A DNA stretch of 64,000 nt from Nitrosopumilus sp. (GCA_965203315.1 CBDBCE010000004.1:128001-192000), one strand, 5' to 3'. Shown: positions 34,243 through 46,960, counted from the stretch's first letter. A program made the numbers and translations. Notes: generated from the sequence alone by a model not told the origin.

Positions 34243-34388
34243 CTCTTGTTATTGGATATGTCTTGCTAAAAAATCCCGCTGTTGTAGGTTCTGTGAAGTT
34301 ATAGGGACATGAAAATTTAAGCGTGAAATCTCAAGATCATCATCTCATGTAAAATAAATTAAAATACCAGTCTATTTGATACAAAAAA

Positions 34389-34640
34389 TTAGGTTTGGTA
34401 AAAGTTTATAAAATATGGCTTGCCGTTTCTTATTTCAAAAATTATGCACAAATGATTTGTAAATTCGAGTTTATGATGACGCTGTTGTGGACATGTTTCA
34501 CAATCAGTTAAAGACAGTAAGTCATCTCTACCGTACATCCATTCAGCACAATAGAGAATTGTTTCTTTGACATCCTGATTTTGAGCATATTCAAGCTTAC
34601 TCTTAAAACGTCTGGTGCAATAATCATGTATATTCCACAT
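34389..34640 (-). CDS. RelE/ParE-fold-like putative toxin
   Basis: 83 aa; TRRFK N-terminus and hydrophobic IIFEI..FINFY strands; homologue at 46175..46449. Confidence 0.55.
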   Translation of the reverse strand: MWNIHDYCTRRFKSKLEYAQNQDVKETILYCAEWMYGRDDLLSLTDCETCPQQRHHKLEFTNHLCIIFEIRNGKPYFINFYQT

Positions 34641-34660
34641 CTAACATTCACCAAAAAAAA

Positions 34661-34780
34661 TTAATTGGATGTGCTTTTTTCTAAGCCTACTTGTTTATCC
34701 ATTTCAAACTGGACAACTATTTCCGCATCCCTGTCAGTCCAAGTGGTCTTGACTGTTTTGGGCTCTTGTGTTCGATCCAT
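34661..34780 (-). CDS. 39-aa peptide, putative antitoxin
   Basis: MDRTQEPKTVKTTWTDRDAEIVVQFEMDKQVGLEKSTSN; homologue at 46038. Confidence 0.65.
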   Translation of the reverse strand: MDRTQEPKTVKTTWTDRDAEIVVQFEMDKQVGLEKSTSN

Positions 34781-35332
34781 ATATAATATAACATAGTTCT
34801 ATATATTAAAGATTCCTATGATATCGCCGATACAGATAATGGTACCAAACTACATTAGCACCAAAATGGCATATGCTCGAGTCAATTGTTGATGATCTAC
34901 GTCTATTCAAAGATGAGCCCCCTAGATAGACGATCTAGATTGATTCAGAACAGTTGACATTTCATATTGAGGTTTGTAGCGAAATTAATAACTTGTAATA
35001 TTGTACAATCATGTTTTCTAAAGGTAAATTTTAAACAATTTTATACATTTTATTTATTTGCATAATAAACATATCAATATGAATAATGTCAAGTATACAA
35101 GATTATGCATTCAATATTGTAATTTGCGATCTTTCGTGGCTATGTTCTCAGGTCCCTATAACTTCACAGAGCCCTGCTGTATGGATATTTTTCTGTTCTA
35201 GAACATGTACACTTCACAAAATATTTCATCAATGTGTCTAGAGTATGAAAGTTATCACATGATCTATGCTGTGTTGTCTGAGACAACCCTTTATTCTAAA
35301 GACACAAATGAATCATAAAATGGATCAAATTT

Positions 35333-35424
35333 GGACCGGTCGTCTAGTTTGGTTTGGATGACGCACTCACACTGCGTAAGGATGATTCCCGCAAAGGTCG
35401 TGGGTTCAAATCCCATCCGGTCCA
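35333..35424 (+). tRNA. tRNA-Val(CAC) with 17-nt non-canonical intron (position 44/45; 35379..35395)
   Basis: GGACCGG/CCGGTCC acceptor, ACGCA-CTCACAC-TGCGT anticodon arm, GTTCAAATC T-loop; TGCG/CGCA central helix with 3-nt bulges. Confidence 0.88.
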
Positions 35425-35797
35425 TTACATAAAATCGGATCTTGTGGTTATTGCGAGATTGACTTTTGCATTGTGCTATCATAAATTACAACTGTAATTC
35501 AAATGATGGTGAGAGGTTCCACCATAATTGATCTATGAATGAATTATCTGCCTATCGCCTTGTCATTGGCTCTTCGTCAGGTCCATCATTGAACTCACGA
35601 ATTATGCGTGGGAACATCACTCTTTTTGCGTTATTTGTGATTCGCTTCATGTATGAATCAACATCTTTGATTCTATTATAGAACAAGGCAATAGTATGCA
35701 TATCGTGAATACTATAGCTACTTTGTATAATATTGATTGGAAAGCGAAATAGCCCTATATGATCTAATTAAAATGCAACTGAATCTAACCTTGTTAT

Positions 35798-35929
35798 GTG
35801 AAGGCTAGATTTAACGGCAAATGTGTGGAGTGTGGTGAAGCGATCAAAGTTGGAAAAGAGATCGCTAAAAATTCTAAAGAACAATGGGTACACAAAGCTT
35901 GTTCTGATATTGAAGATGAACTACCATGA
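35798..35929 (+). CDS. Small zinc-binding protein (43 aa)
   Basis: MKARFNGKCVECGEAIKVG...WVHKAC (GTG start). Confidence 0.7.
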   Translation: MKARFNGKCVECGEAIKVGKEIAKNSKEQWVHKACSDIEDELP

Positions 35930-36001
35930 TCGCATAAAGTGTACGATTTTCGATCATTTGATCTTGTAAATATTTTTAATGTGACTAGATCGACACTCGA
36001 C

Positions 36002-37336
36002 ATGATGGAAAAGTTTCTGATCGTTGGAAGTGGAGGCCGTGAGAGTGCATTTGCAATACATTTGGTTAGAGACGCACAACTATATGCTGTAATGTCTCAC
36101 AAAAATCCATCGATCATAGATTGTGTGTTGGAGACTGGAGGACAATACATAGTATCTGATCCAAACGATCCCGAGACTGTTTTGACGTTTGCAAAAGAGT
36201 TTGATGTAGATTATGTATTTGTGAATGCAGATCAACCTCTAGCCAACGGTGTAGTAGATCTCTTGTTGGATAATAATTTTAAAACTATTGGAGGAACAAA
36301 GGCTGCAACCAGAATCGAGTGGGACAAGATATACTCTATCGAACTGATGCAACGCATATGCCCAGAGTTTACGCCGTTTTACAAGATCGTATCTAGTCGT
36401 GATGATCTGACTGATGCATTATATGAGTTTGAATCAAGAGGAATACCCGTTGTTGTAAAACCGCAAGGACTTACAGGTGGCAAGGGTGTTAAGGTTATGC
36501 CTGAGCATCTAGAGACATATGATGACTGTAAAGACTATGCTGCAAAACTATTGGCAAGTGATGGTAAAGTCTTGTTAGTTGAAAAGTTGAACGGTATCGA
36601 GTTTACCATTATGGGAATCACTGATGGTCAAAGTCTAGTGTTATCTCCTGCAAGTTATGATTATCCATTTCGATATGATGGTGATCTCGGACCAGGAACT
36701 GGAGGAATGGGCTGTTTCACTAGTCCAAAGATACTGCCGTTTATGACTGATAGAGATCTTGTTGATTGTAAAACAATAATGCAACGAGTGATTGACGAGC
36801 TGAGAGATCAAGGTCTATTATTCAATGGCGTACTCAATGGTGGATTCTTTAAGACAAGACAGGGTATACGATTCATGGAGTTCAACAGTCGCTTTGGTGA
36901 TCCAGAGGTTTTGAACATTCTAAGTGTCTTGAACAGTTCTTTCTCTGATCTACTGATCCATATCTGTAATCAAACACTATCTGATGACATTGTATCATTT
37001 ACAGAAAAGTCTAGCGTTAGCAAGTATCTGGTAGCCACAGAATATCCTTCTTCTAGTGAAGAGCCACTGTCATTTACTGTAAACGAAACTGCAATCAAAG
37101 CGATGGGAATAGAGATACTCTTTGCATCGTGTATAAAGACTGGTGACCATCAATATCAGACTCTCAAGAGCTCTCGTGTTGTTGGGCTTGTTGCCACTGC
37201 CGACAAGATCGAAGAGGCATCTAGACTGATCAACGATGCGATCGACTCTCATATTGTTGGTAAATTGGAGTACCGTAGAGATATTGGTTCATCTGAGAAT
37301 ATTGCAAAACTGCTAGATGTGGCCAGAGATCTCTGA
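36002..37336 (+). CDS. purD: Phosphoribosylamine--glycine ligase
   Basis: GSGGRE, KPQGLTGGKGV, GPGTGGMG, EFNSRFGDPE. Confidence 0.92.
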   Translation: MMEKFLIVGSGGRESAFAIHLVRDAQLYAVMSHKNPSIIDCVLETGGQYIVSDPNDPETVLTFAKEFDVDYVFVNADQPLANGVVDLLLDNNFKTIGGTKAATRIEWDKIYSIELMQRICPEFTPFYKIVSSRDDLTDALYEFESRGIPVVVKPQGLTGGKGVKVMPEHLETYDDCKDYAAKLLASDGKVLLVEKLNGIEFTIMGITDGQSLVLSPASYDYPFRYDGDLGPGTGGMGCFTSPKILPFMTDRDLVDCKTIMQRVIDELRDQGLLFNGVLNGGFFKTRQGIRFMEFNSRFGDPEVLNILSVLNSSFSDLLIHICNQTLSDDIVSFTEKSSVSKYLVATEYPSSSEEPLSFTVNETAIKAMGIEILFASCIKTGDHQYQTLKSSRVVGLVATADKIEEASRLINDAIDSHIVGKLEYRRDIGSSENIAKLLDVARDL

Positions 37337-37547
37337 TCTCATCTGTATCGCATACTGTACGGTACGTGCTTTCTGTACAGTCGATACAGTACAGATACAG
37401 TACAGATTCATATCATATCAAATGTTATAACGATCCAACATCTTGCGTATTGTCAGACAGTATTGTCAGCTAGTTCTGGTGAACCAAAATGAGAGTCTAA
37501 TATGAAACATTCATGCGTAAATTTTTTAAGTTAATCGTATTCATGTA

Positions 37548-37976
37548 ATGTTGTTGAAGACAAAAACTCTCATTATGACTATCGCAGCAGTGATGATGAT
37601 CGCAGCAGTTGTACCTCAAATCGCATCTGCTCAAGACCAATCAAACGCAGTGACAATAACTCCATTAAATGATGAGATCAGCATCAAAGAGATCGAACTG
37701 ACGATGAGTGTCCCTGTCGATAATACATTTCCTTGGGGTACAGTTAAAGGTGGACCATCCGAGTACGTGGAACGTTATCCAATAATCATACAGTTCTATA
37801 AAGATGAAGAGCCTGTACATGTTGCGCAGGTTGGCGTAAAAGGAGACGGTTCTTACGAGTATCGATTTCGAGCTGGGATGCTAGATTCTGAAACAGGCAA
37901 GTTTGTGAACTTTTTTAGTGGTGACTATACAGTAAAGATATTTCGTGTAGTTCCAAATACTACTCAAACTGTCTAA
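37548..37976 (+). CDS. Secreted hypothetical protein
   Basis: Signal peptide; GDGSYEYRF..GDYTVKI Ig-like pattern. Confidence 0.75.
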   Translation: MLLKTKTLIMTIAAVMMIAAVVPQIASAQDQSNAVTITPLNDEISIKEIELTMSVPVDNTFPWGTVKGGPSEYVERYPIIIQFYKDEEPVHVAQVGVKGDGSYEYRFRAGMLDSETGKFVNFFSGDYTVKIFRVVPNTTQTV

Positions 37977-38051
37977 TTTTTTTAACTATTATACAACGTG
38001 ATACAATATCTACTCCGCTGAACTCTTATATCGAATATTCTGCATCGTTGT

Positions 38052-38591
38052 ATGAGTAAGAACTTTTGGCATGACATTGAATCTGGAACAGATGTACCAG
38101 AGATAATCAACGTTATAGTTGAGATACCAAAAGGTTCTATGAACAAATACGAGTACGACAAGACGCACAACATGATAAAACTAGATCGTGTCCTTTTTTC
38201 TCCATTTCATTACCCTGGTGACTATGGAATAGTTCCACAAACACTCTCTGAGGACGGTGATCCTCTAGACGCTCTAGTGCTAGTTACAAATCCAACATAT
38301 CCTGGAATATTGATAGAGGCGAGACCAATAGGTCTGTTGCAGATGCGTGATGACGGTAAATTGGATGATAAGATAGTATGTGTTTCAATAAATGACCCTA
38401 GATATCTACACACAAATGATATCTCTGACATTGAAGATCACTATCGTTCTGAGACTGCCCACTTTTTTCAAGTGTATAAAGATCTGGAGGGGAAGAAAGT
38501 TGATATCTTGGGCTGGAAGTCTGCTAAAGAAGCAAAACTAGTTGTGATCGAGTCGATAAAGCGCTACAAGAACACGTTAAAAAAATTCTAG
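38052..38591 (+). CDS. ppa: Inorganic pyrophosphatase (family I)
   Basis: EIPKGS.NKYE, LDRVL, DGDPLDAL, DDKI. Confidence 0.96.
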   Translation: MSKNFWHDIESGTDVPEIINVIVEIPKGSMNKYEYDKTHNMIKLDRVLFSPFHYPGDYGIVPQTLSEDGDPLDALVLVTNPTYPGILIEARPIGLLQMRDDGKLDDKIVCVSINDPRYLHTNDISDIEDHYRSETAHFFQVYKDLEGKKVDILGWKSAKEAKLVVIESIKRYKNTLKKF

Positions 38592-38795
38592 TATTGCAAC
38601 CATGTATAATCCAGCGTTTGAGTTCTGTAAAAATCAAGTAGCATGATGTATTGATCTATGATTTGGATTAAAGTATGTGTAGATGTAACTTCTACATTTG
38701 AGTATTAGCTGTTTACTGCCTGTTAATTCATCAATAGTTCATCGTCATGGTCAAGTTCCAATTGATTTTTTAATGGTCATATTACACACTATCTT

Positions 38796-40553
38796 ATGTA
38801 TAAATCAGGACCGTGGAGTCTAGATGAGATTACTATTGATCCTAACAGTGATGAATTTCAACAAAAGATTAAAGACATGCAACGAGACGTATCTAAATTT
38901 AAAAAGACTACACTATCATCAAATATCTCATCAAAAAAGTTCGTCAAAATATTAAATGATATAGAAAATATCTCGTCTCAGAGAAGCAAGCTAGTCGGTT
39001 ATGCACATTTGTCACATGCTGCCAATACCCAGTCTGATGAAGCGACAACACTGTTGACTCGAATGTCTGTCTTAAACTCTGAGATTGCAAATCAGACGCT
39101 GTTCTTTGATTTGTGGTGGAAGCGTCTTGATAAACGAAACGCGAATCGTCTCACAAAGAGTGCTGGTAATCTGCAAGAGTATCTTAAACACAAACGAATG
39201 ATCGCAAAGTACACTCTAAGTGAACCAGAAGAAAAGATAATCAACACTTTGGATGTGACTGGAGCATCTGCCCTCGTAAAATTGTATGACAAGATAACCA
39301 ACGTCTTTGAGTACCAAATGAAGATAAAATCCAAGATTCGAAAGATGACTCGAGAAGAACTAACAAACTATGTACGTAGTAATAATGCCAATACACGTCG
39401 TACTGCGTACAAAACAATTCTTACAAAGTATGATCAAAGCCGTGGTGTTTTGGGCGAAATTTATCAAAACCTCGTCTTAAATTGGCGAGATGAAGGACTC
39501 AGGATTCGTGGATATGACTCACCAATATCGATGCGAAACATTGCAAACAATATCGATGATGAGACCATCAAGTCTCTTTTAGAGACCTGTGAACGAAACA
39601 GATCTGTGTTTCAAAGATTCTTTGTCCAAAAAGCCAAGATGCTAAAGATGAAACGTCTACGACGATACGACATATACGCTCCAATATCCAAATCTTATAA
39701 ACATCAATACTCGTATGACGCAGCCGTCAAGCTGGTTTTAGAGTCGTTTGGAAAGTTCAGTGATACGTTAAAAGATTATGCAGAGAGAGTCTTTGAACAG
39801 AATCATGTAGACTCTGAGATAAGACTCGGCAAGCGTGATGGCGCCTTTTGTAGTACGCTTGCACCTGATGTCACACCGTTTGTACTACTGAACTTTACTG
39901 GTCAAACTAGAGATGTCTTTACACTCGCACACGAGATTGGTCATGCTGTACATAGTCAAGCAGCTGAAAAACACTCTATTCTAGTTCAAGATGCACCATT
40001 GCCCATATCAGAGACTGCGTCAACTTTTGGTGAATTGTTACTGTATCATAACATGTCAGAACAAGTATCTAACAAACAAAAGATGATCATGCTAGCTGAA
40101 AAGATCGATGATCTATACGCTACGATAATGCGCCAATCATTCTTTACTATATTTGAGGTAACTGCACACGAGCAGATAGATAAAGGAAGCACAATTGAAC
40201 AGATCTCGAATACATATCTTGAGAATATAAAATCTCAGTTTGGAACTGCTGTTGAGGTATCTGATGATTTTGCAGTAGAGTGGTCGTGTATCCCACACTT
40301 TTTTCATACGCCGTTCTATTGTTATGCCTACTCGTTTGGCAACCTCTTGACTCTATCTCTATTTCAACGATATCTAAAAGAAGGCAAAGACTTTGTACCT
40401 TCGTATATCGAGATCCTCACTGCCGGTGGAACGCAAAAACCAGAAACTCTGCTTGACAAATATGGATTTGATATACGCTCTTCAAAGTTTTGGCAACAGG
40501 GTTTTGACTATATAGATTCACAGATACATGAACTAGAATCATTAAGGGGCTGA
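38796..40553 (+). CDS. pepF: Oligoendopeptidase F (M3B)
   Basis: GKRDGAFC, TLAHEIGHAVH, ETAST, IPHFFHTPFYCYAY. Confidence 0.92.
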   Translation: MYKSGPWSLDEITIDPNSDEFQQKIKDMQRDVSKFKKTTLSSNISSKKFVKILNDIENISSQRSKLVGYAHLSHAANTQSDEATTLLTRMSVLNSEIANQTLFFDLWWKRLDKRNANRLTKSAGNLQEYLKHKRMIAKYTLSEPEEKIINTLDVTGASALVKLYDKITNVFEYQMKIKSKIRKMTREELTNYVRSNNANTRRTAYKTILTKYDQSRGVLGEIYQNLVLNWRDEGLRIRGYDSPISMRNIANNIDDETIKSLLETCERNRSVFQRFFVQKAKMLKMKRLRRYDIYAPISKSYKHQYSYDAAVKLVLESFGKFSDTLKDYAERVFEQNHVDSEIRLGKRDGAFCSTLAPDVTPFVLLNFTGQTRDVFTLAHEIGHAVHSQAAEKHSILVQDAPLPISETASTFGELLLYHNMSEQVSNKQKMIMLAEKIDDLYATIMRQSFFTIFEVTAHEQIDKGSTIEQISNTYLENIKSQFGTAVEVSDDFAVEWSCIPHFFHTPFYCYAYSFGNLLTLSLFQRYLKEGKDFVPSYIEILTAGGTQKPETLLDKYGFDIRSSKFWQQGFDYIDSQIHELESLRG

Positions 40554-40708
40554 CAGCCCAACGCACGGACTGCCAGCTTTGTACCCCAACGGTTTGAATT
40601 CCGATGTCGATATTGCTCTACCGTCCTGTGATTTAAACGTTAGAGCCTAAACTCGTACATGTGCAGTTTAGTATGTGGCATCTGTGAGAACTTTTACTTG
40701 ACATCATC

Positions 40709-41236
40709 TCAGAGTATTGTTGGTTGACTTTTCTTTATTCTTTTAAACATCCAAATTAACTTTGTTCCAGATTTGATCGATTTTGTAAATTTAAGATTCT
40801 CATATAACTTTGTCTTGGTTTGTATGTAGGATGATATACCTACATCCAATTTTATGACTAGTTCTTCTAGCTAGTCCTACAATAAATTTAACTATCATTC
40901 TTCCGAGACCTTTATGTCTAAACGGTTTATCAATACCCATCTACCCCAACAATATGCAAGTGTATGTAGTAATCGATATTTTACTAACTATCTTTCACTC
41001 AAATGCTTTGTTGATATTCCATTCATAAATAATGTGAAACACCCAACCAAATTATTTTCGTATAGTACAACAAAGAGAGAGCACAAGTCACTGTCTAAAA
41101 AATGCTTTACTTTGGTCTTGAAAAAATTATCTACATTTAAGGGATCTGATCCATCATCTTCTGTAAAATCCAATTTAGCGATATCATCGCCATGATTATA
41201 TTCTCTTATGAGTATGGAATTCGTATTTAACGTCAT
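40709..41236 (-). pseudogene. GNAT toxin (AtaT/TacT-like) pseudogene
   Basis: ...VGCFTL.. then CILLG*MGIDKPFRHKGLG...IGCRYIIL with stops and frameshifts; ATGA overlap with upstream gene. Confidence 0.75.
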
Positions 41237-41418
41237 GATGAATTTGTTTTTGCACACATCTCAGCATAAAATTCATCCGCCTCTTCCAACCACTTTATTT
41301 CGCTTTGAGTGAGTGGCCTACGATCATGCTCCAGAAATCGCTTTGCGTCATCACCAGTCAGCACTGGCATTCCAAGTAATGCAAAAGTGTTATCTGCTTT
41401 GACCTCATCCGTGTCCAT
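41233..41418 (-). CDS. Putative antitoxin of GNAT toxin
   Basis: PVLTGDDAKRFLE pattern typical of GNAT-associated antitoxin C-termini; translationally coupled. Confidence 0.65.
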   Translation of the reverse strand: MDTDEVKADNTFALLGMPVLTGDDAKRFLEHDRRPLTQSEIKWLEEADEFYAEMCAKTNSS

Positions 41419-41513
41419 ATTGTACTGTATATTTACGGCAATATAACGATTAGCCACATTACAAATTCATTCGTCTCTAACCCAGTGTCTAGGTCAAGCA
41501 CATAATCCGACAC

Positions 41514-41774
41514 GGATCTTTTTGATTTACATGGGGTGGCATTTTACAAGACTTTTCCCCTAGACTGCATGCGTATTATTAAGAGTGCCCATGCCAATCA
41601 TCAAACACGATAACAATGAATCAATCTGCCTCTAGAAAGTACACCGGTATTTTATTGTACCTTAAAATGTGCGTGTGATATAAGAAATATGCATACAGTC
41701 TCCTAAAGTACCCATACGAAATCTTGTAGTATTTTTTCTATAAAAATTCTACTTTGCGTAAATCGAAAAGATCA
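41514..41774. mobile_element. MITE family B interrupted by family A copy 7
   Basis: GGATCTTTTTGATTTA ... TAAATCGAAAAGATC. Confidence 0.8.
41562..41701. mobile_element. MITE family A, copy 7
   Basis: TIRs present, CCT/CCT target duplication. Confidence 0.9.
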
Positions 41775-41888
41775 GATCAAACCATTGATTGATAGTATTT
41801 TGTACACCACTCACCAAAAACATGAGGCGACACATATTATTCAAAGCGAGTCAATACAATATGACCGGTAAGAGAAAATAAAAAAGAG

Positions 41889-42512
41889 TTATTTGAGATC
41901 TTTTAACTCTTTTTCTATGGCTTCTTTAAATATAGGATCAAGAGATCTGCCTTGATCATACTTTTCATTGTATGCTTTATCTCCAACAATTTTGTACTTG
42001 CCATATTTGCCTAGTTTGACAAAGTAGTTATTACCATTCTCTCCATCAGGGCCTTGATCAGACTTTCCTATGTGAACTATGACATGTTCACCCAACTCAA
42101 ATTGAGGCTCAAAACCAAATATGAAGTGTTCGCCATGCTCATAGAGACCTGCTAGATAGAATGTGAATGAATCGCCATTATGTACAAGTTCGGTTTCTTT
42201 ATCCTTTGTTTTCTTACTAACGTCTATGGTTACCGGTACAGCACCATGCGTATCGCCTTCATATTTCCAAACTATAGGATCACCAACTGATGTCACAGTT
42301 CCAGATAATGTCAAAACAACTTCCTCTTTTATTTTAGAAATATCTTCTGTCATCACAGAAAATTCAGTAGGAATTACCTTGAGATTTGGATTTGCTTTGG
42401 TAATGTTTGACTGTACATACACGTACTCACTAGGAGACATCGACGTAGCAATAGAAACTACCGAAATAGCCACTATGATCAAAACACTAGTTGCTAATAG
42501 TTTTTTGTTCAT
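41889..42512 (-). CDS. Membrane-anchored/secreted hypothetical protein
   Basis: N-terminal signal/TM then beta-rich domain; 8 nt downstream of peptidase gene. Confidence 0.75.
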   Translation of the reverse strand: MNKKLLATSVLIIVAISVVSIATSMSPSEYVYVQSNITKANPNLKVIPTEFSVMTEDISKIKEEVVLTLSGTVTSVGDPIVWKYEGDTHGAVPVTIDVSKKTKDKETELVHNGDSFTFYLAGLYEHGEHFIFGFEPQFELGEHVIVHIGKSDQGPDGENGNNYFVKLGKYGKYKIVGDKAYNEKYDQGRSLDPIFKEAIEKELKDLK

Positions 42513-42520
42513 CTCTTCTC

Positions 42521-43145
42521 CTATGAATAGTAGTCATTGATGTCATTGATGTCTTCGGCTCTCAGTTGCGCCATTCCTGAATCACAGCCAGGCTTCATTG
42601 CGGTATGGTCAGAGGTCCACGTAAAATAGTGATGGTGATTCAAACCTGCAAGATGTCCAAACTCATGATTGAGGATGTACTGTGCTGGTACATCACTAGC
42701 AAATATATTGCAACCACCACGTGTGTTGTAGTTCAGATGTTCATGGGTATTTAGCCAAATTACTTTGTAGAAATATGGGTTACCCTCAAAAGTACCTTTA
42801 TGGATTGTGGTCACACCATATATGCGTGTATCACTAAACTTTGTTGCGTCAACTTTGCTGGCATGTGGCCATGAATATGTACTAGTTTCAACTAGATCAA
42901 AATCAGTATTATGAATTACATTTCGTGATACTTCGGCAGTTAGTCGAATCCCAACACCATTGACTTCGTTATCTAGAGATACTTTATTGAGACTATTGAT
43001 ATCATACCAAATTGTCTCTGACTCGTTTACACCATATGGATTAAATGTCATGATATGAGTTGCAGTCATGCCCAAACGCGATAGGCAATGCAAATATGAT
43101 AGTGATTGCAAGCATTATTGTTGAGGTTATTTTTACGTCAGTCAT
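42521..43145 (-). pseudogene. Secreted metzincin (matrixin-like) peptidase, frameshifted after signal peptide
   Basis: HEFGHLAGLNH plus Met-turn HTAM; signal peptide MTDVKITSTIMLAITIIFALPIAFG from ATG 43145 is out of frame by 1 nt. Confidence 0.7.
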
Positions 43146-43399
43146 GTTCTTACAACTTGAGATCCATAATATCTTTTAACTATCACGCATCTATGGTCCA
43201 TTTTTGTATTCAAAAGTGACTCATCTTTATCAATATGGCTGATAGATTATTCTTTGTGACTCTCATCTTGTGAGTGTAGAATGACCATCAGAAAGATTGT
43301 ACTCAAGATTGGCGTGTTATTGGCGGTATGTTTGACACTACAACACAACTCATTCCGTGCTGTCTCTAAATTCATATTCGAAGCGCCAAGATGAGATTA

Positions 43400-45754
43400 C
43401 TAGTTCCACAATATACTTTGATTGGCTGATATGTACTTGCCCATATCTGACCACTGATCATCTCTTATTCCCCATATCGTATAATCTGCTATTGCTAGAT
43501 CACCTGCATCGTTTAATCTAATAGATCCTAATGCACCTATGTGATCTCTAGACACAGATACTATAGAATCTCTGACATCCATTGCGTTACTGCTATCGGA
43601 CTCGATCATTGCAAGTCCAGCCAACCATACTGCATCATATGCTGTATACGCGTATATGGAAGGAGTGTGACCTAGTATGTCGTCTATGTGATCTGTAACC
43701 CGTTGAGCGATCAAATTCTGTTCTATTGAAAACTGAACTGTTGTAAACTCTGTATGTACTGCAAACTCTCTACTCGTCACATCGTCGAGAATCTCTTGTT
43801 CCTTTGCGCTTGCACTAGTACCAAACCATTGTACATCCAGTAGTGTGTTGTATTTGGTTGACTCTTGCATGAATTCAACACCTTCACCAAATCCTATAAA
43901 CAACACTCCTACTCTGTCTGTACCATACTTGTCAACCAATACCTGGATCTGTTTTGATAACTGTTTTGTAGTCTCTTCGATATCATGCATGTCAGCTGGA
44001 TAAACAACTGGTTCGTCAACGATACCACCCATGGACACAAACGACTCTGCAGCAGTCTTGTATAGTCCTTGACCCCACGTATCGTCACGATACAGTGGAA
44101 CATATGCTTGAATGCCTTGATCGATCATTATACTTGAGATTGCTGGACCTTGTTTGCTGTCATCGGGAATGATTCTGTAGACACTGTCGTTGGGAATGGC
44201 CAGTACCGGCGCTGTACTGCAACAACTGATCAAGATCATATCGTTTGTATTTGCATACTCTTTGATGTGTGATACACTTCCACTAGTTCCAGGACCGATT
44301 ATTGTGTGGATTCCTATTGAGTGTAGGTACTCTAGGCGTTCAAGAGCTACTGCTGGTTTGGTCTCTGTATCTTCGATTACTAGATCTATCTTCCAGTCTT
44401 GATTCTGTTCTTTTAGATATCGGTTGAGATCATCAACTGCAAATAACGCTCCTTGATTTGCTTCTCTACCTATTGATGCTAGATCACCATCAAGTGGCAA
44501 GAGTATGCCGATGGTTACCAAACCAGACAAAGAATCGTCTAGATTCCACAATATCGAATCATTCTCTAAAGTATATTTGCCTATTGGACTCCATTGAGAA
44601 TCTATTATCTGAAATATCTCATAATTACTTGCAATCAAATCTCCCTCTGCGTTCAATGCTGCTGAACCTATGGCACCTTGATAGTCTTGTGATACTTTGA
44701 TTATATTTTGTCTTACTGCATTAGCGTCATACTCTTTAGACTCGAGCATTGCAAGTCCTGCCAACCATACTGCATCATATGTGGTATACTCATAAATTGA
44801 TGGCTCCTGACCAACTGCATCTAAGACATGTGTACTCAATCTCTCTGATATGGGGTTGTTGTCTATTGCAAACTGAATTGTAGTATATTGAGTCTCCTCA
44901 GCAAATTCTAAACCAATATCATCATCAATCAAGTCGAGATTGATATCTGATCCAAACCACCTGACATTCTTTAGTGTCTCATAGTTTGTAGCAGCCTTCA
45001 AGAATTCCATCTTTTCTGAAAATCCTATCAACAAGATACCGACGCTGTCTATTCCATACTCTTGAGACAGTGATTCTATTTGAGCTGATATTGTTTCGAT
45101 GTTGGTTGAAAACTCTTGTGTACCTGGTTCATATCGTACTCCTTTGCCTACGGTGCCACCAAGTGAGATAAATGAATCTCTAGTACTAGAATAAAGTTCA
45201 TCGCCCCACAGATCTCCTCGATATAACGAAACTAGTGCCTTGACTCCTTTGTCATACATGATATTTGCAATAACACGTCCTTCAGTACTATCACTAGGAT
45301 ACACGCGATATACGGAATCATCTCTGATTGCAAGTGAAGGTGCACTACTACAACAGCTTATCAGAACGATATCGTTTGATTCGATATATGGTTTGATCTT
45401 TTGAATCCCAGCACTTGTATCGGGACCTATGACGATGTCGATTCCCTGCTCATCTAGTGTGGTTATCTTGTCTATTATGTTGTCTGAGTTTGTATCTGTA
45501 GTCTCTATGACCACATCTAGTTGCCAATCTTGCTCCAGCTCCTTTAGGTGCTCATTAAAGTCATCTATGCCTAACTGTACACTCTCTATGGATTTGTTAG
45601 TGGACTCTTCTGGCACAAGTGCACCAATAGTTACTATATTCTTGTTAGATACTCTGTCACGCATATCTATATCTGATGAAGTTCCAATCCAAATGCCGAT
45701 GACGATTAGAATGACAGCTATGCCCCCGCCAATCATTATTGCTTTTAATGCCAA
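43400..45754 (-). CDS. Branched-chain amino acid ABC-type substrate-binding protein with tandem duplicated PBP1 domains
   Basis: Two homologous halves (LISCCS.AP.LAI..DSVYR..P.D; YDAVWLAGLAM), N-terminal TM. Confidence 0.88.
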   Translation of the reverse strand: MALKAIMIGGGIAVILIVIGIWIGTSSDIDMRDRVSNKNIVTIGALVPEESTNKSIESVQLGIDDFNEHLKELEQDWQLDVVIETTDTNSDNIIDKITTLDEQGIDIVIGPDTSAGIQKIKPYIESNDIVLISCCSSAPSLAIRDDSVYRVYPSDSTEGRVIANIMYDKGVKALVSLYRGDLWGDELYSSTRDSFISLGGTVGKGVRYEPGTQEFSTNIETISAQIESLSQEYGIDSVGILLIGFSEKMEFLKAATNYETLKNVRWFGSDINLDLIDDDIGLEFAEETQYTTIQFAIDNNPISERLSTHVLDAVGQEPSIYEYTTYDAVWLAGLAMLESKEYDANAVRQNIIKVSQDYQGAIGSAALNAEGDLIASNYEIFQIIDSQWSPIGKYTLENDSILWNLDDSLSGLVTIGILLPLDGDLASIGREANQGALFAVDDLNRYLKEQNQDWKIDLVIEDTETKPAVALERLEYLHSIGIHTIIGPGTSGSVSHIKEYANTNDMILISCCSTAPVLAIPNDSVYRIIPDDSKQGPAISSIMIDQGIQAYVPLYRDDTWGQGLYKTAAESFVSMGGIVDEPVVYPADMHDIEETTKQLSKQIQVLVDKYGTDRVGVLFIGFGEGVEFMQESTKYNTLLDVQWFGTSASAKEQEILDDVTSREFAVHTEFTTVQFSIEQNLIAQRVTDHIDDILGHTPSIYAYTAYDAVWLAGLAMIESDSSNAMDVRDSIVSVSRDHIGALGSIRLNDAGDLAIADYTIWGIRDDQWSDMGKYISANQSILWN

Positions 45755-46037
45755 TGATCTGCTCTGTTGTTGTATGTTAATACGTTTTACCTTTATTTTT
45801 GATTGACGATCTGCTATGGTGGCAACTTAGAGTGAGACTAGAACCTAATTCGAATATCGTGCTTTGGGCTGAGTAGTGTGGTCTATCTTTTTCTATCATG
45901 CAAATTTCTTCAGAATTAAAAGTCAGGAACTCGTATCAACCTAAAAGAATCAATACCAAGAATGAGTACATGAATATCAATCTGCTCACAAAACAAATTA
46001 AATAACCTTTATTATGGTACTTTGGACATACATTAGT

Positions 46038-46172
46038 ATGGCAAGCCAAGAAGATAGTCTTGAGGACTTGACTGTGGATACAGTATGGGAGGACAGAGAT
46101 TCTGACATAGTGGTCCAATATCAGATAGACAAGAAACTGAACCTGGAATCTGTGGATGAACTCTCTCAATAG
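46038..46172 (+). CDS. 44-aa acidic peptide, putative antitoxin
   Basis: MASQEDSLEDLTVDTVWEDRDSDIVVQYQIDKKLNLESVDELSQ; 15/26 identical to 34661..34780 core. Confidence 0.65.
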   Translation: MASQEDSLEDLTVDTVWEDRDSDIVVQYQIDKKLNLESVDELSQ

Positions 46173-46174
46173 GA

Positions 46175-46449
46175 ATGTCTTATCCCGACCCTAAAACCAG
46201 TTCACAAGAAAGTATTCTGCAAGGTTTTATGCAAAACATATTCTCCTAAAGTCAAAAATCGACAAGGACATCATATTTAATTACACAGTAAAGATCGCAA
46301 ACAATCCATCATCTGACAAAATTGGTGGTGTTGTAACGTGCCCTGGTGTCAAGTTTAAAAAACTAAAGTTTACTACCGGTTGGGTCATTATTTATGAACT
46401 GTTGGATGACAAAATAGAGTTTGTCAATTTTTACAAGTGTGGATCATAG
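46175..46449 (+). pseudogene. RelE-fold-like putative toxin, frameshifted near 5' end
   Basis: MSYPDPK|NQFTRKY...TCPGVKFKKLKFTTGWVIIYELLDDKIEFVNFYKCGS; 275 nt. Confidence 0.6.
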
Positions 46450-46596
46450 GTGTGTAATAACTAAAAGATACTGTGGATATCAATATGTAAGAACATGACT
46501 GGCGTAAAAATAACCTAAACAATGGTCTTGTAATCACCATCACGTTTACGTTGCTTATCGCATTTGGACGCGACAGCAACTCATATTATGACATTT
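46432..46596 (+). repeat. Diverged inverted copy of 43043..43208 (peptidase promoter and signal-peptide region)
   Basis: Shared TAAAAGATA, GTAAGAACATGACTG.CGTAAAAATAACCT, GCAACTCATAT.ATGACATTT. Confidence 0.85.
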
Positions 46597-46960
46597 CATC
46601 TAACTGGTAAGAGATCAAGGGACAACAATAACAAGGTGGAATGCTTGAATGGTATGATTAGAGATCGTGTAGTATATCGTGGTCTCAAGAAAGATGATCC
46701 AAGTCTCATCTGTGGCTTCCGTACATTCTACAATTGTACAAAGAAACATGAAGCGTTGGGAGGCAAGACATCAGCTGAAGAAGCCTTGATCTTGATCGAT
46801 GGACCCAACAAGTGGAAAACAATCATCCAGAATGCGCGAGTCTGTACAAGAGATCGCTGTAACTTTCCTCTTTTTTGTTTATCGTATTACGCCTCGTGAT
46901 TGAACGATCTTTGTGATCTTTCGTGTTTAGATTTCCAGCTCCCGATAACTTCGCAGAACC
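46597..46960 (+). pseudogene. IS6-family transposase 3' remnant with right TIR
   Basis: NNKVECLNGMIRDR..RGLKK..YN..KHEALGGKTSAE; ATAACTTCGCAGAACC terminus. Confidence 0.82.

Follow-up and report, generated by a model that had tools for sequence, protein, structure and literature searches.

In a stretch of 64,000 nucleotides (nt) from Nitrosopumilus sp. (GCA_965203315.1, CBDBCE010000004.1:128001-192000), a module of two small adjacent genes was examined, of which the upstream one encodes an acidic peptide of about 40 residues and the downstream one a larger protein, of 83 residues in its intact copy. The whole stretch is called the window hereafter, and corresponds to 128001-192000 of contig C5 in its own genome, G000. 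With a probability of roughly 60%, we regard the pair as a new, lineage-restricted and mobile type II toxin-antitoxin-like family of Nitrosopumilaceae, where the larger protein would be the toxin and the peptide its antitoxin. The reading is carried by the constant linkage of the two genes in other genomes, by the predicted RelE/ParE fold of the larger protein, and by a decay which strikes the larger gene while the peptide gene is kept. A preliminary description of the window had already proposed a new toxin-antitoxin family, and this interpretation is partly supported, in that the computational evidence agrees with it. Ammonia-oxidising archaea rank among the most abundant marine microbes, and their mobile elements, defence and toxin-antitoxin content are poorly charted; Pfam, NCBIfam and PADLOC all miss the present pair, and its peptide gene falls under the size that most gene callers keep.

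Both peptide genes that had been noticed at first sight are present in the window. Module 1 lies on the minus strand and is intact: its first cistron, the candidate antitoxin gene, is an open reading frame (ORF) of 39 amino acids (aa) at 34661..34780 with an isoelectric point (pI) of 4.8, which belongs to the peptide family (hmmsearch E 6e-23), and after a spacer of 20 nt containing a GGTGA motif it is followed by an intact 83-aa ORF at 34389..34640, the candidate RelE/ParE-fold toxin gene. Module 2 lies on the plus strand, where an intact 44-aa peptide ORF (46038..46172, pI 4.05, E 1.7e-24) is followed by a larger gene (46175..46449) that is dead. The ATG of this pseudogene, at 46175, comes 2 nt after the peptide gene, and its frame ends after 24 codons at a stop at 46247-46249, because a 1-nt deletion between 46200 and 46201, recognised by alignment with an intact relative in genome G014, shifts the frame; the homologous frame is open over 46195-46449 only and lacks a start codon. 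In two studies, one possibly including the window's own sample, Logan contigs of the runs match 44949-46700 with 0 differences and 0 gaps, therefore the lesion is not peculiar to this assembly. As a result, the two-gene module that had been described as present twice is confirmed for both peptides and for the whole of module 1, and the ORF of about 83-91 aa reported after each peptide turns out to be broken in module 2. The likeness between the copies stands, with 16 of 29 residues identical without gaps between the peptides (BLASTP E 1e-11) and 15 of 34 between the larger frames of about 84 aa (E 4e-9). Moreover, an A/T-rich TATA-like box precedes both peptide genes as had been claimed, at 34800..34812 on the minus strand for module 1 and at 46006..46016 on the plus strand for module 2, each read from the sequence at about 22-32 nt 5' of the peptide ATG, and the position of the latter favours ATG 46038 as the start over an upstream ATG at 46014. 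Such boxes, at a distance of about 22-35 nt, are seen in most of 17 loci inspected, and this spacing suggests a leaderless bicistronic transcript of the peptide and the large gene.

Gene linkage and one-sided decay

The observation in the window is more than chance, since the pair recurs in related genomes. Altogether 22 loci in 18 genomes of Nitrosopumilaceae carry the pair or the peptide, namely 20 loci in 17 genomes found by a peptide profile among 401 genomes of the family and two further loci in G014, which came from a peptide search over 61 relatives and each have the peptide directly upstream of the large gene. A profile of the large protein, searched in six frames against the same 401 family genomes, gave 12 loci outside G000 with E values of at most 1.4e-8, and a peptide-family ORF lies directly 5' of the large gene at 12/12 of them. 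Taking all loci with a recognisable large gene together, the peptide gene is just 5' at 19/19, with spacers of 2-20 nt, so that the linkage for which the preliminary description had asked in other genomes is seen throughout; the two small genes are adjacent, co-oriented and conserved as in a type II toxin-antitoxin operon. The prevalence of the pair in the family sample is about 4% (17/401 genomes). In a phylum-wide sample, likewise of 401 genomes, the peptide is present in 5/56 genomes of the window's family and in 0/344 genomes of 60 other families, and the pair is restricted to Nitrosopumilaceae in this sample.

In protein collections both families are small: when 1.84 billion representative proteins were scanned in full by HMMER with the profile of the large protein, 17 reached E <= 0.001, and among 5.8 billion clusters a word-indexed profile search yielded 64 of the peptide, with lengths of 34-67 aa. 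The homologues of both proteins, where they are named, are called 'hypothetical protein', and a single peptide homologue has an informative source, as 'hypothetical protein [Thaumarchaeota archaeon]'. A word-based protein search with the 83-aa protein gave no candidates as against the 17 of the full scan, and a profile search of genome contigs with one large-gene alignment gave no confirmed locus. No published description of the pair was found in the literature, which was searched mainly at abstract level.

The two genes differ sharply in their state of preservation. Of the 22 loci, 6 have an intact large gene, 13 a broken or degenerate one and 3 none, as against 21 with an intact peptide gene, 1 with a broken or degenerate one and 0 without it. 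The intact large genes are those of window module 1, one G014 locus (L002), G397, G184, G103 and G236; broken ones are found in window module 2, the other G014 locus (L007), G074, G099, G079, G390, G413, G036, G339, G157 (two loci), G327 and G354; and the gene is absent at contig C7 of G000, in G408 and in G078. The single degenerate peptide is that of G408, and an intact large gene beside a broken peptide was seen at 0/22 loci. If lesions fell in proportion to gene length (about 90 against 44 codons), the first hit would be in the large gene at 13/13 loci with P = 0.006, a value that assumes independent events; they are taken as independent because the lesions differ by locus, being a frameshift, an in-frame stop or a truncation.

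The peptide gene, for its part, appears from its substitution pattern to be under purifying selection. Within subfamilies the ratio of nonsynonymous to synonymous substitution rates (dN/dS) is 0.17-0.35, and this includes pairs of loci in which both large genes are dead, such as L019/L020 (0.24) and L021/L019 (0.18); for the peptide of module 2 against its G014 relative it is 0.17. The median is 0.32 over the 46 usable of 136 pairs, where synonymous sites are saturated in most of the distant pairs and a few of these give 0.7-0.9. By analogy, such a one-sided decay is the erosion pattern described for toxin-antitoxin pairs: a survey of validated bacterial systems in Photorhabdus reports the toxin alone pseudogenised in N = 185 cases and the antitoxin alone in N = 8, and states that 'toxin inactivation precedes antitoxin loss' (PMC13617665). 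The decay would thus serve as a natural record that assigns the toxin and antitoxin roles without experiment.

Predicted structures and possible mode of action

The larger protein very probably has the RelE/ParE fold, as judged from its structure model. The 83-aa protein of module 1 was modelled by AlphaFold2 on a 15-row alignment with a mean predicted local distance difference test score (pLDDT) of 90.7 and a predicted template modelling score of 0.78, and the model consists of helices at 10-18 and 22-36 and strands at 47-49, 56-59, 64-71 and 74-82, that is, a helix-helix-four-strand arrangement. The RelE/ParE fold itself has an N-terminal strand, two helices and a three- to four-stranded antiparallel sheet in about 85-100 aa. 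In a VIA-align comparison of the model with 48,161 PDB representatives, toxins of the RelE/ParE superfamily (Z 9.4-5.9) make up 23 of the 24 best matches, and their alignments cover 72-78 of the 83 residues; the best 11 chains (Z 9.4-8.0) are all RelE, YoeB, ParE, PrpT or YafQ, and rank 20 is Cami1. For example, RelE1 of M. tuberculosis (9g12_B) scores Z 9.4 with a root mean square deviation (rmsd) of 1.8 over 72 aligned residues, RelE of T. thermophilus (2khe) Z 9.0 with 1.9 over 74, YoeB (2a6q_E) Z 8.8 with 3.0 over 78, ParE1 (8c24_B) Z 8.8 with 2.2 over 75, and the archaeal RelE proteins of P. horikoshii (1wmi_C) and M. jannaschii (3bpq_D) Z 8.3 with 2.9 over 74 and Z 8.1 with 2.8 over 75, respectively. 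In Foldseek, the matches listed are all RelE, HigB, YoeB, ParE, YafQ or related toxins, with a best E of 0.013, a probability of 1.0 and template modelling scores of 0.54-0.66, and no PDB match reached E <= 0.001. In the ESM Atlas the best score was 0.84, to unnamed clusters, which gave no lead.

Large proteins of the family have 83-98 aa, and most intact ones have a pI of 7.7-9.8. Among 19 intact members Cys50, Lys57 and Phe80 are invariant, all three being present in module 1, Phe12, Lys15 and Phe60 are kept in at least 90%, and Tyr81 is mostly kept. In the model, Lys57 lies on strand beta2 and Lys15 on helix 1, so the signature of the family can be written as F-x2-K in helix 1, an invariant Cys before beta2, K-x2-F, and a terminal F-x2-F-Y.

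The peptides are 34-47 aa long and acidic, with a pI of 4.05-5.3, and in a model of the peptide alone (AlphaFold, 18 rows) residues 16-31 form a single helix, flanked by coil at either end. No match was found for it in Pfam, NCBIfam or PADLOC, in agreement with the earlier remark that the peptide family was not recognised. Classical type II antitoxins carry a ribbon-helix-helix, helix-turn-helix, AbrB or Phd/YefM DNA-binding domain and autoregulate their operon. With one predicted helix and no more than 47 residues, the peptide appears too small for such an N-terminal domain and would differ in this from RelB, ParD, YefM/Phd and HigA, as the idea of a minimal antitoxin without DNA-binding domain had foreseen; lacking it, the peptide would be unable to autoregulate in the classical way. 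If its antitoxin role is true, the peptide, at about 40 residues, would be the smallest proteinaceous antitoxin known to us.

A possible mode of action can be proposed from these features. A leaderless bicistronic transcript probably arises from a promoter about 25-30 nt 5' of the peptide ATG; its first cistron gives the acidic peptide of 34-47 aa with one predicted amphipathic helix, and the second the predicted RelE/ParE-fold protein of 83-98 aa. By analogy with RelE, YoeB, HigB and YafQ, the large protein would most likely inhibit translation by cutting mRNA or other RNA, with Lys57 on beta2, Lys15 on helix 1 and the two C-terminal aromatic residues as possible functional residues, and the peptide probably binds and masks it like the toxin-binding tail of RelB or ParD, or like PaaA2. 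As for the target, ParE-type toxins poison gyrase. Neither PF00521 (GyrA/ParC) nor PF00204 (GyrB) had a match in G000, which is 99.98% complete, while the controls were positive in 12/14 genomes; a ParE-like attack on gyrase is therefore unlikely in a genome without gyrase, and RNA or translation is favoured as the target, in line with RelE, YoeB, HigB and YafQ. The module would travel with insertion sequences (ISs) and on at least one contig that IMG/VR files as viral, and after its arrival the toxin gene would decay first while the peptide gene is kept by purifying selection.

Mobile carriers and virus-like contigs

IS6-type DNA had been noted in or near both modules, and it is found at both. 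Module 1 is carried by a non-autonomous IS6-type cassette of 887 bp (34287..35173) without a transposase ORF inside, which is bounded by 22-nt terminal inverted repeats at 34287-34308 and 35152-35173 (0 and 1 mismatches). The target duplication of the IS6 family is 8 bp, and the 8-bp flanks of the cassette, ctgttgta at 34279-34286 and ctgctgta at 35174-35181, match at 7/8 positions as such a duplication. By its shared terminal repeats, target duplication and lack of a transposase, the carrier of module 1 is a non-autonomous element derived from the IS6 family. On the 3' side of module 2 lies an IS6/IS240-family transposase remnant (46564..46899, plus strand) of 111 aa that keeps the C-terminal ~90 residues only; its Pfam match to rve_3 (E 3.4e-4) is below the cut-off, but it matches a 397-aa transposase beside the module in G103 (Pfam DDE_Tnp_IS240; BLASTP E 6e-13) and the transposase beside the G078 peptide (E 5e-14). 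The remnant ends at a solo IS6-type terminal repeat at 46939..46960 on the minus strand, with 3 mismatches to the repeat at 34287. Thus the window has three copies of the 22-nt repeat (34287, 35173 and 46960) where 0 are expected by chance, and the whole of G000 has only 9 ends of this kind, solo or paired. In a 2019 survey, transposons carrying passenger genes are given as undetected in archaea (PMC6563490).

Of 15 loci scanned outside G000, 8 have transposase ORFs, of several families, at a distance of no more than 1.5 kb, and a G014 module is flanked on both sides by IS4/IS5 copies; at the other 7/15 no transposase is found within 1.5 kb, and some of these loci are between housekeeping genes. 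The pair was also considered as a regular cargo of full IS6 copies and rejected as such, for no repeats enclose transposase and module together in G103 or G078.

A whole-genome tblastn of G000 revealed a third peptide copy of 37 aa on contig C7 (39320-39433), which is identical to the module 2 peptide at 27/38 positions and to the module 1 peptide at 21/31, and no third large gene was found in G000 by this search, nor any remnant of one 3' of the C7 peptide. Judged by its genes, C7 (53.6 kb) looks virus-like, as a free virus or a provirus: its large-terminase gene is split into two ORFs, and it further encodes HNH endonucleases, an MCM helicase, two DNA methylases (N6/N4 and MT-A70), a PD-(D/E)XK nuclease and a 3328-aa ORF. 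Two further contigs, whose viral nature rests on their IMG/VR label, carry an intact module (L102, 46.7 kb, found via the peptide) and a C-terminally cut peptide (L103), respectively; their neighbouring ORFs have no Pfam match and, besides the module, no relative in G000. A scan of viral contigs with one large-gene alignment found none, although L102 has an intact large gene.

Neighbours of defence type are seen at three loci, namely Mrr at G074, AbiEi at G014 and a PDC-M32A candidate at G078. At the last of these (L056, contig C58), the peptide gene is 2 nt 5' of a 372-aa gene that PADLOC matches to PDC-M32A (E 2e-112), and an IS6-type transposase is just upstream of this locus. That the peptide could be a promiscuous antitoxin of other effectors was considered and rejected as a general rule, since two other full-length PDC-M32A genes among 301 genomes are without the peptide.

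Several other features of the window and its genome were recorded along with the two modules. A tRNA-Val(CAC) gene at 35332-35425 on the plus strand, whose 94 nt are long enough for an intron, lies 158 nt from the right end of the cassette; very deep contigs of another organism extend over it and show small insertions at 35381-35385. An inverted repeat of about 175 nt (43031-43208 and 46432-46608, 79-83% complementary) surrounds a 784-aa binding-protein gene and module 2, and is read as a trace of an IS-mediated rearrangement. It copies the 5' end of a metalloprotease-like gene (42521-43111), for which a signal-peptide-like start is seen at 43041-43145 in a different frame. At 41514-41757 the contig depth rises about 7-fold with many loose ends, and a joint omitting 41534-41757 is present in three runs, as if it were a short multi-copy repeat, possibly a miniature inverted-repeat transposable element. 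On the minus strand at 40800-41457, a 74-aa ORF (41233-41457) is followed by adjacent ORFs at 40988-41257 and 40800-40940, the latter two of which seem to resemble the split halves of a GNAT acetyltransferase and may, with 41233-41457, be another decayed toxin-antitoxin pair; the ORFs 41233-41457 and 40988-41257 have no Pfam match. Among weak chance matches of the large-gene profile search, an open frame of 387 aa is repeated at no fewer than six places on G000 contigs C1, C5 and C6 and is probably a multi-copy insertion sequence, and G000 in general seems to be rich in IS elements and frameshifted genes.

Alternative explanations and known systems

Several of our results weigh against a toxin-antitoxin interpretation. 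In the searches with sequence profiles, 0 Pfam families passed the cut-off for the two window frames and 17 further family members, NCBIfam had no match for the 19 proteins, PADLOC had none for 5 of 6 large proteins and for the sixth (L012) one weak ThsB TIR-like match (E 0.016), and a sequence-profile search of PDB gave nothing. Compared by hhalign with 31 archaeal PF05016 proteins from genomes of the same order, the family reached a probability of 5.5%, which is not significant, though the two align colinearly over 68 columns, in the register that is expected. The membership in the RelE/ParE superfamily that had been proposed earlier is thus upheld by the predicted fold in AlphaFold, Foldseek and VIA-align, and fails at the sequence level. 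In addition, a best Z of 7-8 in VIA-align is common for models without a true match, so that 9.4 is moderately above this range, and the fold is argued because the list of hits is uniform and their coverage full-length rather than by Z alone. The catalytic residues are a further difficulty. E. coli RelE uses K52, K54, R61, R81 and Y87, on a basic sheet face and with C-terminal Arg/His and Tyr, and the canonical PF05016 set conserves R48, Y52, R53, H72, R73 and Y77. The new protein ends just after beta4 without the His-Arg...Tyr C-terminus and has no Arg after the Gly-Tyr turn; because it stops at F-Y, R53, H72, R73 and Y77 are without counterpart, and a RelE-type active site is therefore not evident. 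If there is an active site, it would be non-canonical. Finally, the intact protein of module 1 has a pI of 6.4 and is not basic, unlike most intact large proteins, the peptide model is of middling confidence (pLDDT 75), and large genes are dead at 13/19 loci, from which the family could be mostly relics.

One alternative is that the RelE-fold protein is no toxin, and is instead a harmless small RNA- or ribosome-binding or regulatory protein carried as IS cargo, with the peptide as a partner or an unrelated ORF. The missing catalytic motif, the neutral pI of the intact window copy and the lack of family annotation for either protein would agree with it, and the decay of most copies is what is expected of dispensable cargo. 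However, neutral cargo would lose its genes by length and here only the large gene is struck, the peptide shows purifying selection, and nearly all of the closest structural neighbours are toxins of toxin-antitoxin systems, for which reasons we hold this explanation to be unlikely. A topoisomerase-poisoning toxin of ParE type, inhibited by a ParD- or PaaA2-like peptide, seems far less credible. ParE structures do score as well as RelE (Z 8.8, 8.7, 8.4 and 8.3 against the 83-aa model), ParE toxins are also without the RelE catalytic residues, and PaaA2, the closest precedent of an antitoxin free of a DNA-binding domain, partners ParE, yet the host genome lacks the GyrA and GyrB homologues, and the new family, as we take it, is without the C-terminal extension of ParE toxins. 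Similarly, an account in which the two genes serve IS6-type elements as accessory genes, for instance as transposition regulators, and form no addiction or defence module, is highly improbable. It would explain why IS6-type terminal repeats and a target duplication enclose module 1, and why module 2, the module of G103 and the peptide gene of G078 each have an IS6/IS240 transposase gene or remnant next to them, but not the loci beside unrelated IS4/IS5, IS66 and rve-type elements, nor those seven without a nearby transposase, nor the lack of IS6 repeats around transposase and module in G103 and G078.

Another proposal is a special case of the toxin-antitoxin interpretation with a defined biological role, in which the RelE-fold protein would be an abortive-infection effector checked by the peptide, and viral peptide-only copies would act as an antitoxin-mimic counter-defence. 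The peptide-only copy on virus-like C7, with no large-gene remnant downstream, and the loci beside Mrr, AbiEi and PDC-M32A speak for it. Against this, C7 is the one clear virus-like case of a peptide alone and may as well be a module with a deleted toxin gene, as in G408 and G078, while the intact full module on the viral-labelled L102 suits addiction equally, so this role too has a low probability. Its fullest version, that viruses captured the ~40-residue antitoxin of an abortive-infection system as a stand-alone gene (C7) and that the module spread as cargo of IS6-type cassettes, is rather a long shot; if true, it would mean a toxin/anti-toxin arms race in Nitrosopumilaceae run with an antitoxin of about 40 residues.

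Under the preferred interpretation as a mobile toxin-antitoxin-like family, the RelE/ParE fold would gain a new sequence family, and the very small single-helix candidate antitoxin is easy to synthesise and test. The IS6-type cassette with its cargo and the virus-borne peptide-only copy offer handles on how the module moves and on whether archaeal viruses counter it. Moreover, if the toxin is active despite the missing C-terminal catalytic residues, the view of how the RelE/ParE fold cuts RNA would be widened.

Among known systems, the canonical ParE_toxin (PF05016) genes share the superfamily fold with the predicted structure of the new protein and occur in the same organisms, in 78/201 genomes of the order. 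They differ in that they are recognised by Pfam, are mostly open (internal stops in 7/150 among the matches listed) and have longer antitoxins upstream, whereas the new family is about 4% prevalent and broken at 13/19 loci. The one canonical PF05016 gene of G000, at C1:383307-383522 (L039), is intact and has upstream a 125-aa ORF with a DUF7557 match. With RelBE, represented by the RelE structures of M. jannaschii (3bpq), P. horikoshii (1wmi) and M. tuberculosis (RelE1, 9g12), the pair shares the predicted fold and size (Z 8.1-9.4, rmsd 1.8-2.9 over 72-75 residues) as well as the order of antitoxin before toxin, the short spacing and the acidic upstream partner. The differences are that the sequence similarity is not significant, that the new protein stops after beta4 without the His-Arg...Tyr of canonical archaeal RelE and has a signature of its own, and that its partner has about 40 aa and one predicted helix, whereas RelB has about 80 aa with a DNA-binding domain.

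The paaR2-paaA2-parE2 system of E. coli O157:H7, likened here by description only, likewise joins a RelE/ParE-fold toxin with an antitoxin free of a DNA-binding domain, and on mobile DNA too, there a prophage (PMC8630535); however, PaaA2 is longer and needs the third gene PaaR2, while no third conserved gene is seen here, and ParE2 is thought to act on topoisomerases, while the present host is without gyrase. As to evolution, the type II systems of the Photorhabdus survey were likewise acquired with mobile elements and show toxin-first pseudogenisation, which here amounts to 13 broken large genes and 0 cases of the reverse, though those systems are bacterial, experimentally validated and of known families, and ours is a new archaeal family known from sequence (PMC13617665). 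Altogether, as far as its sequences tell, the pair stands outside every described sequence family and resembles the type II modules RelBE and ParDE.

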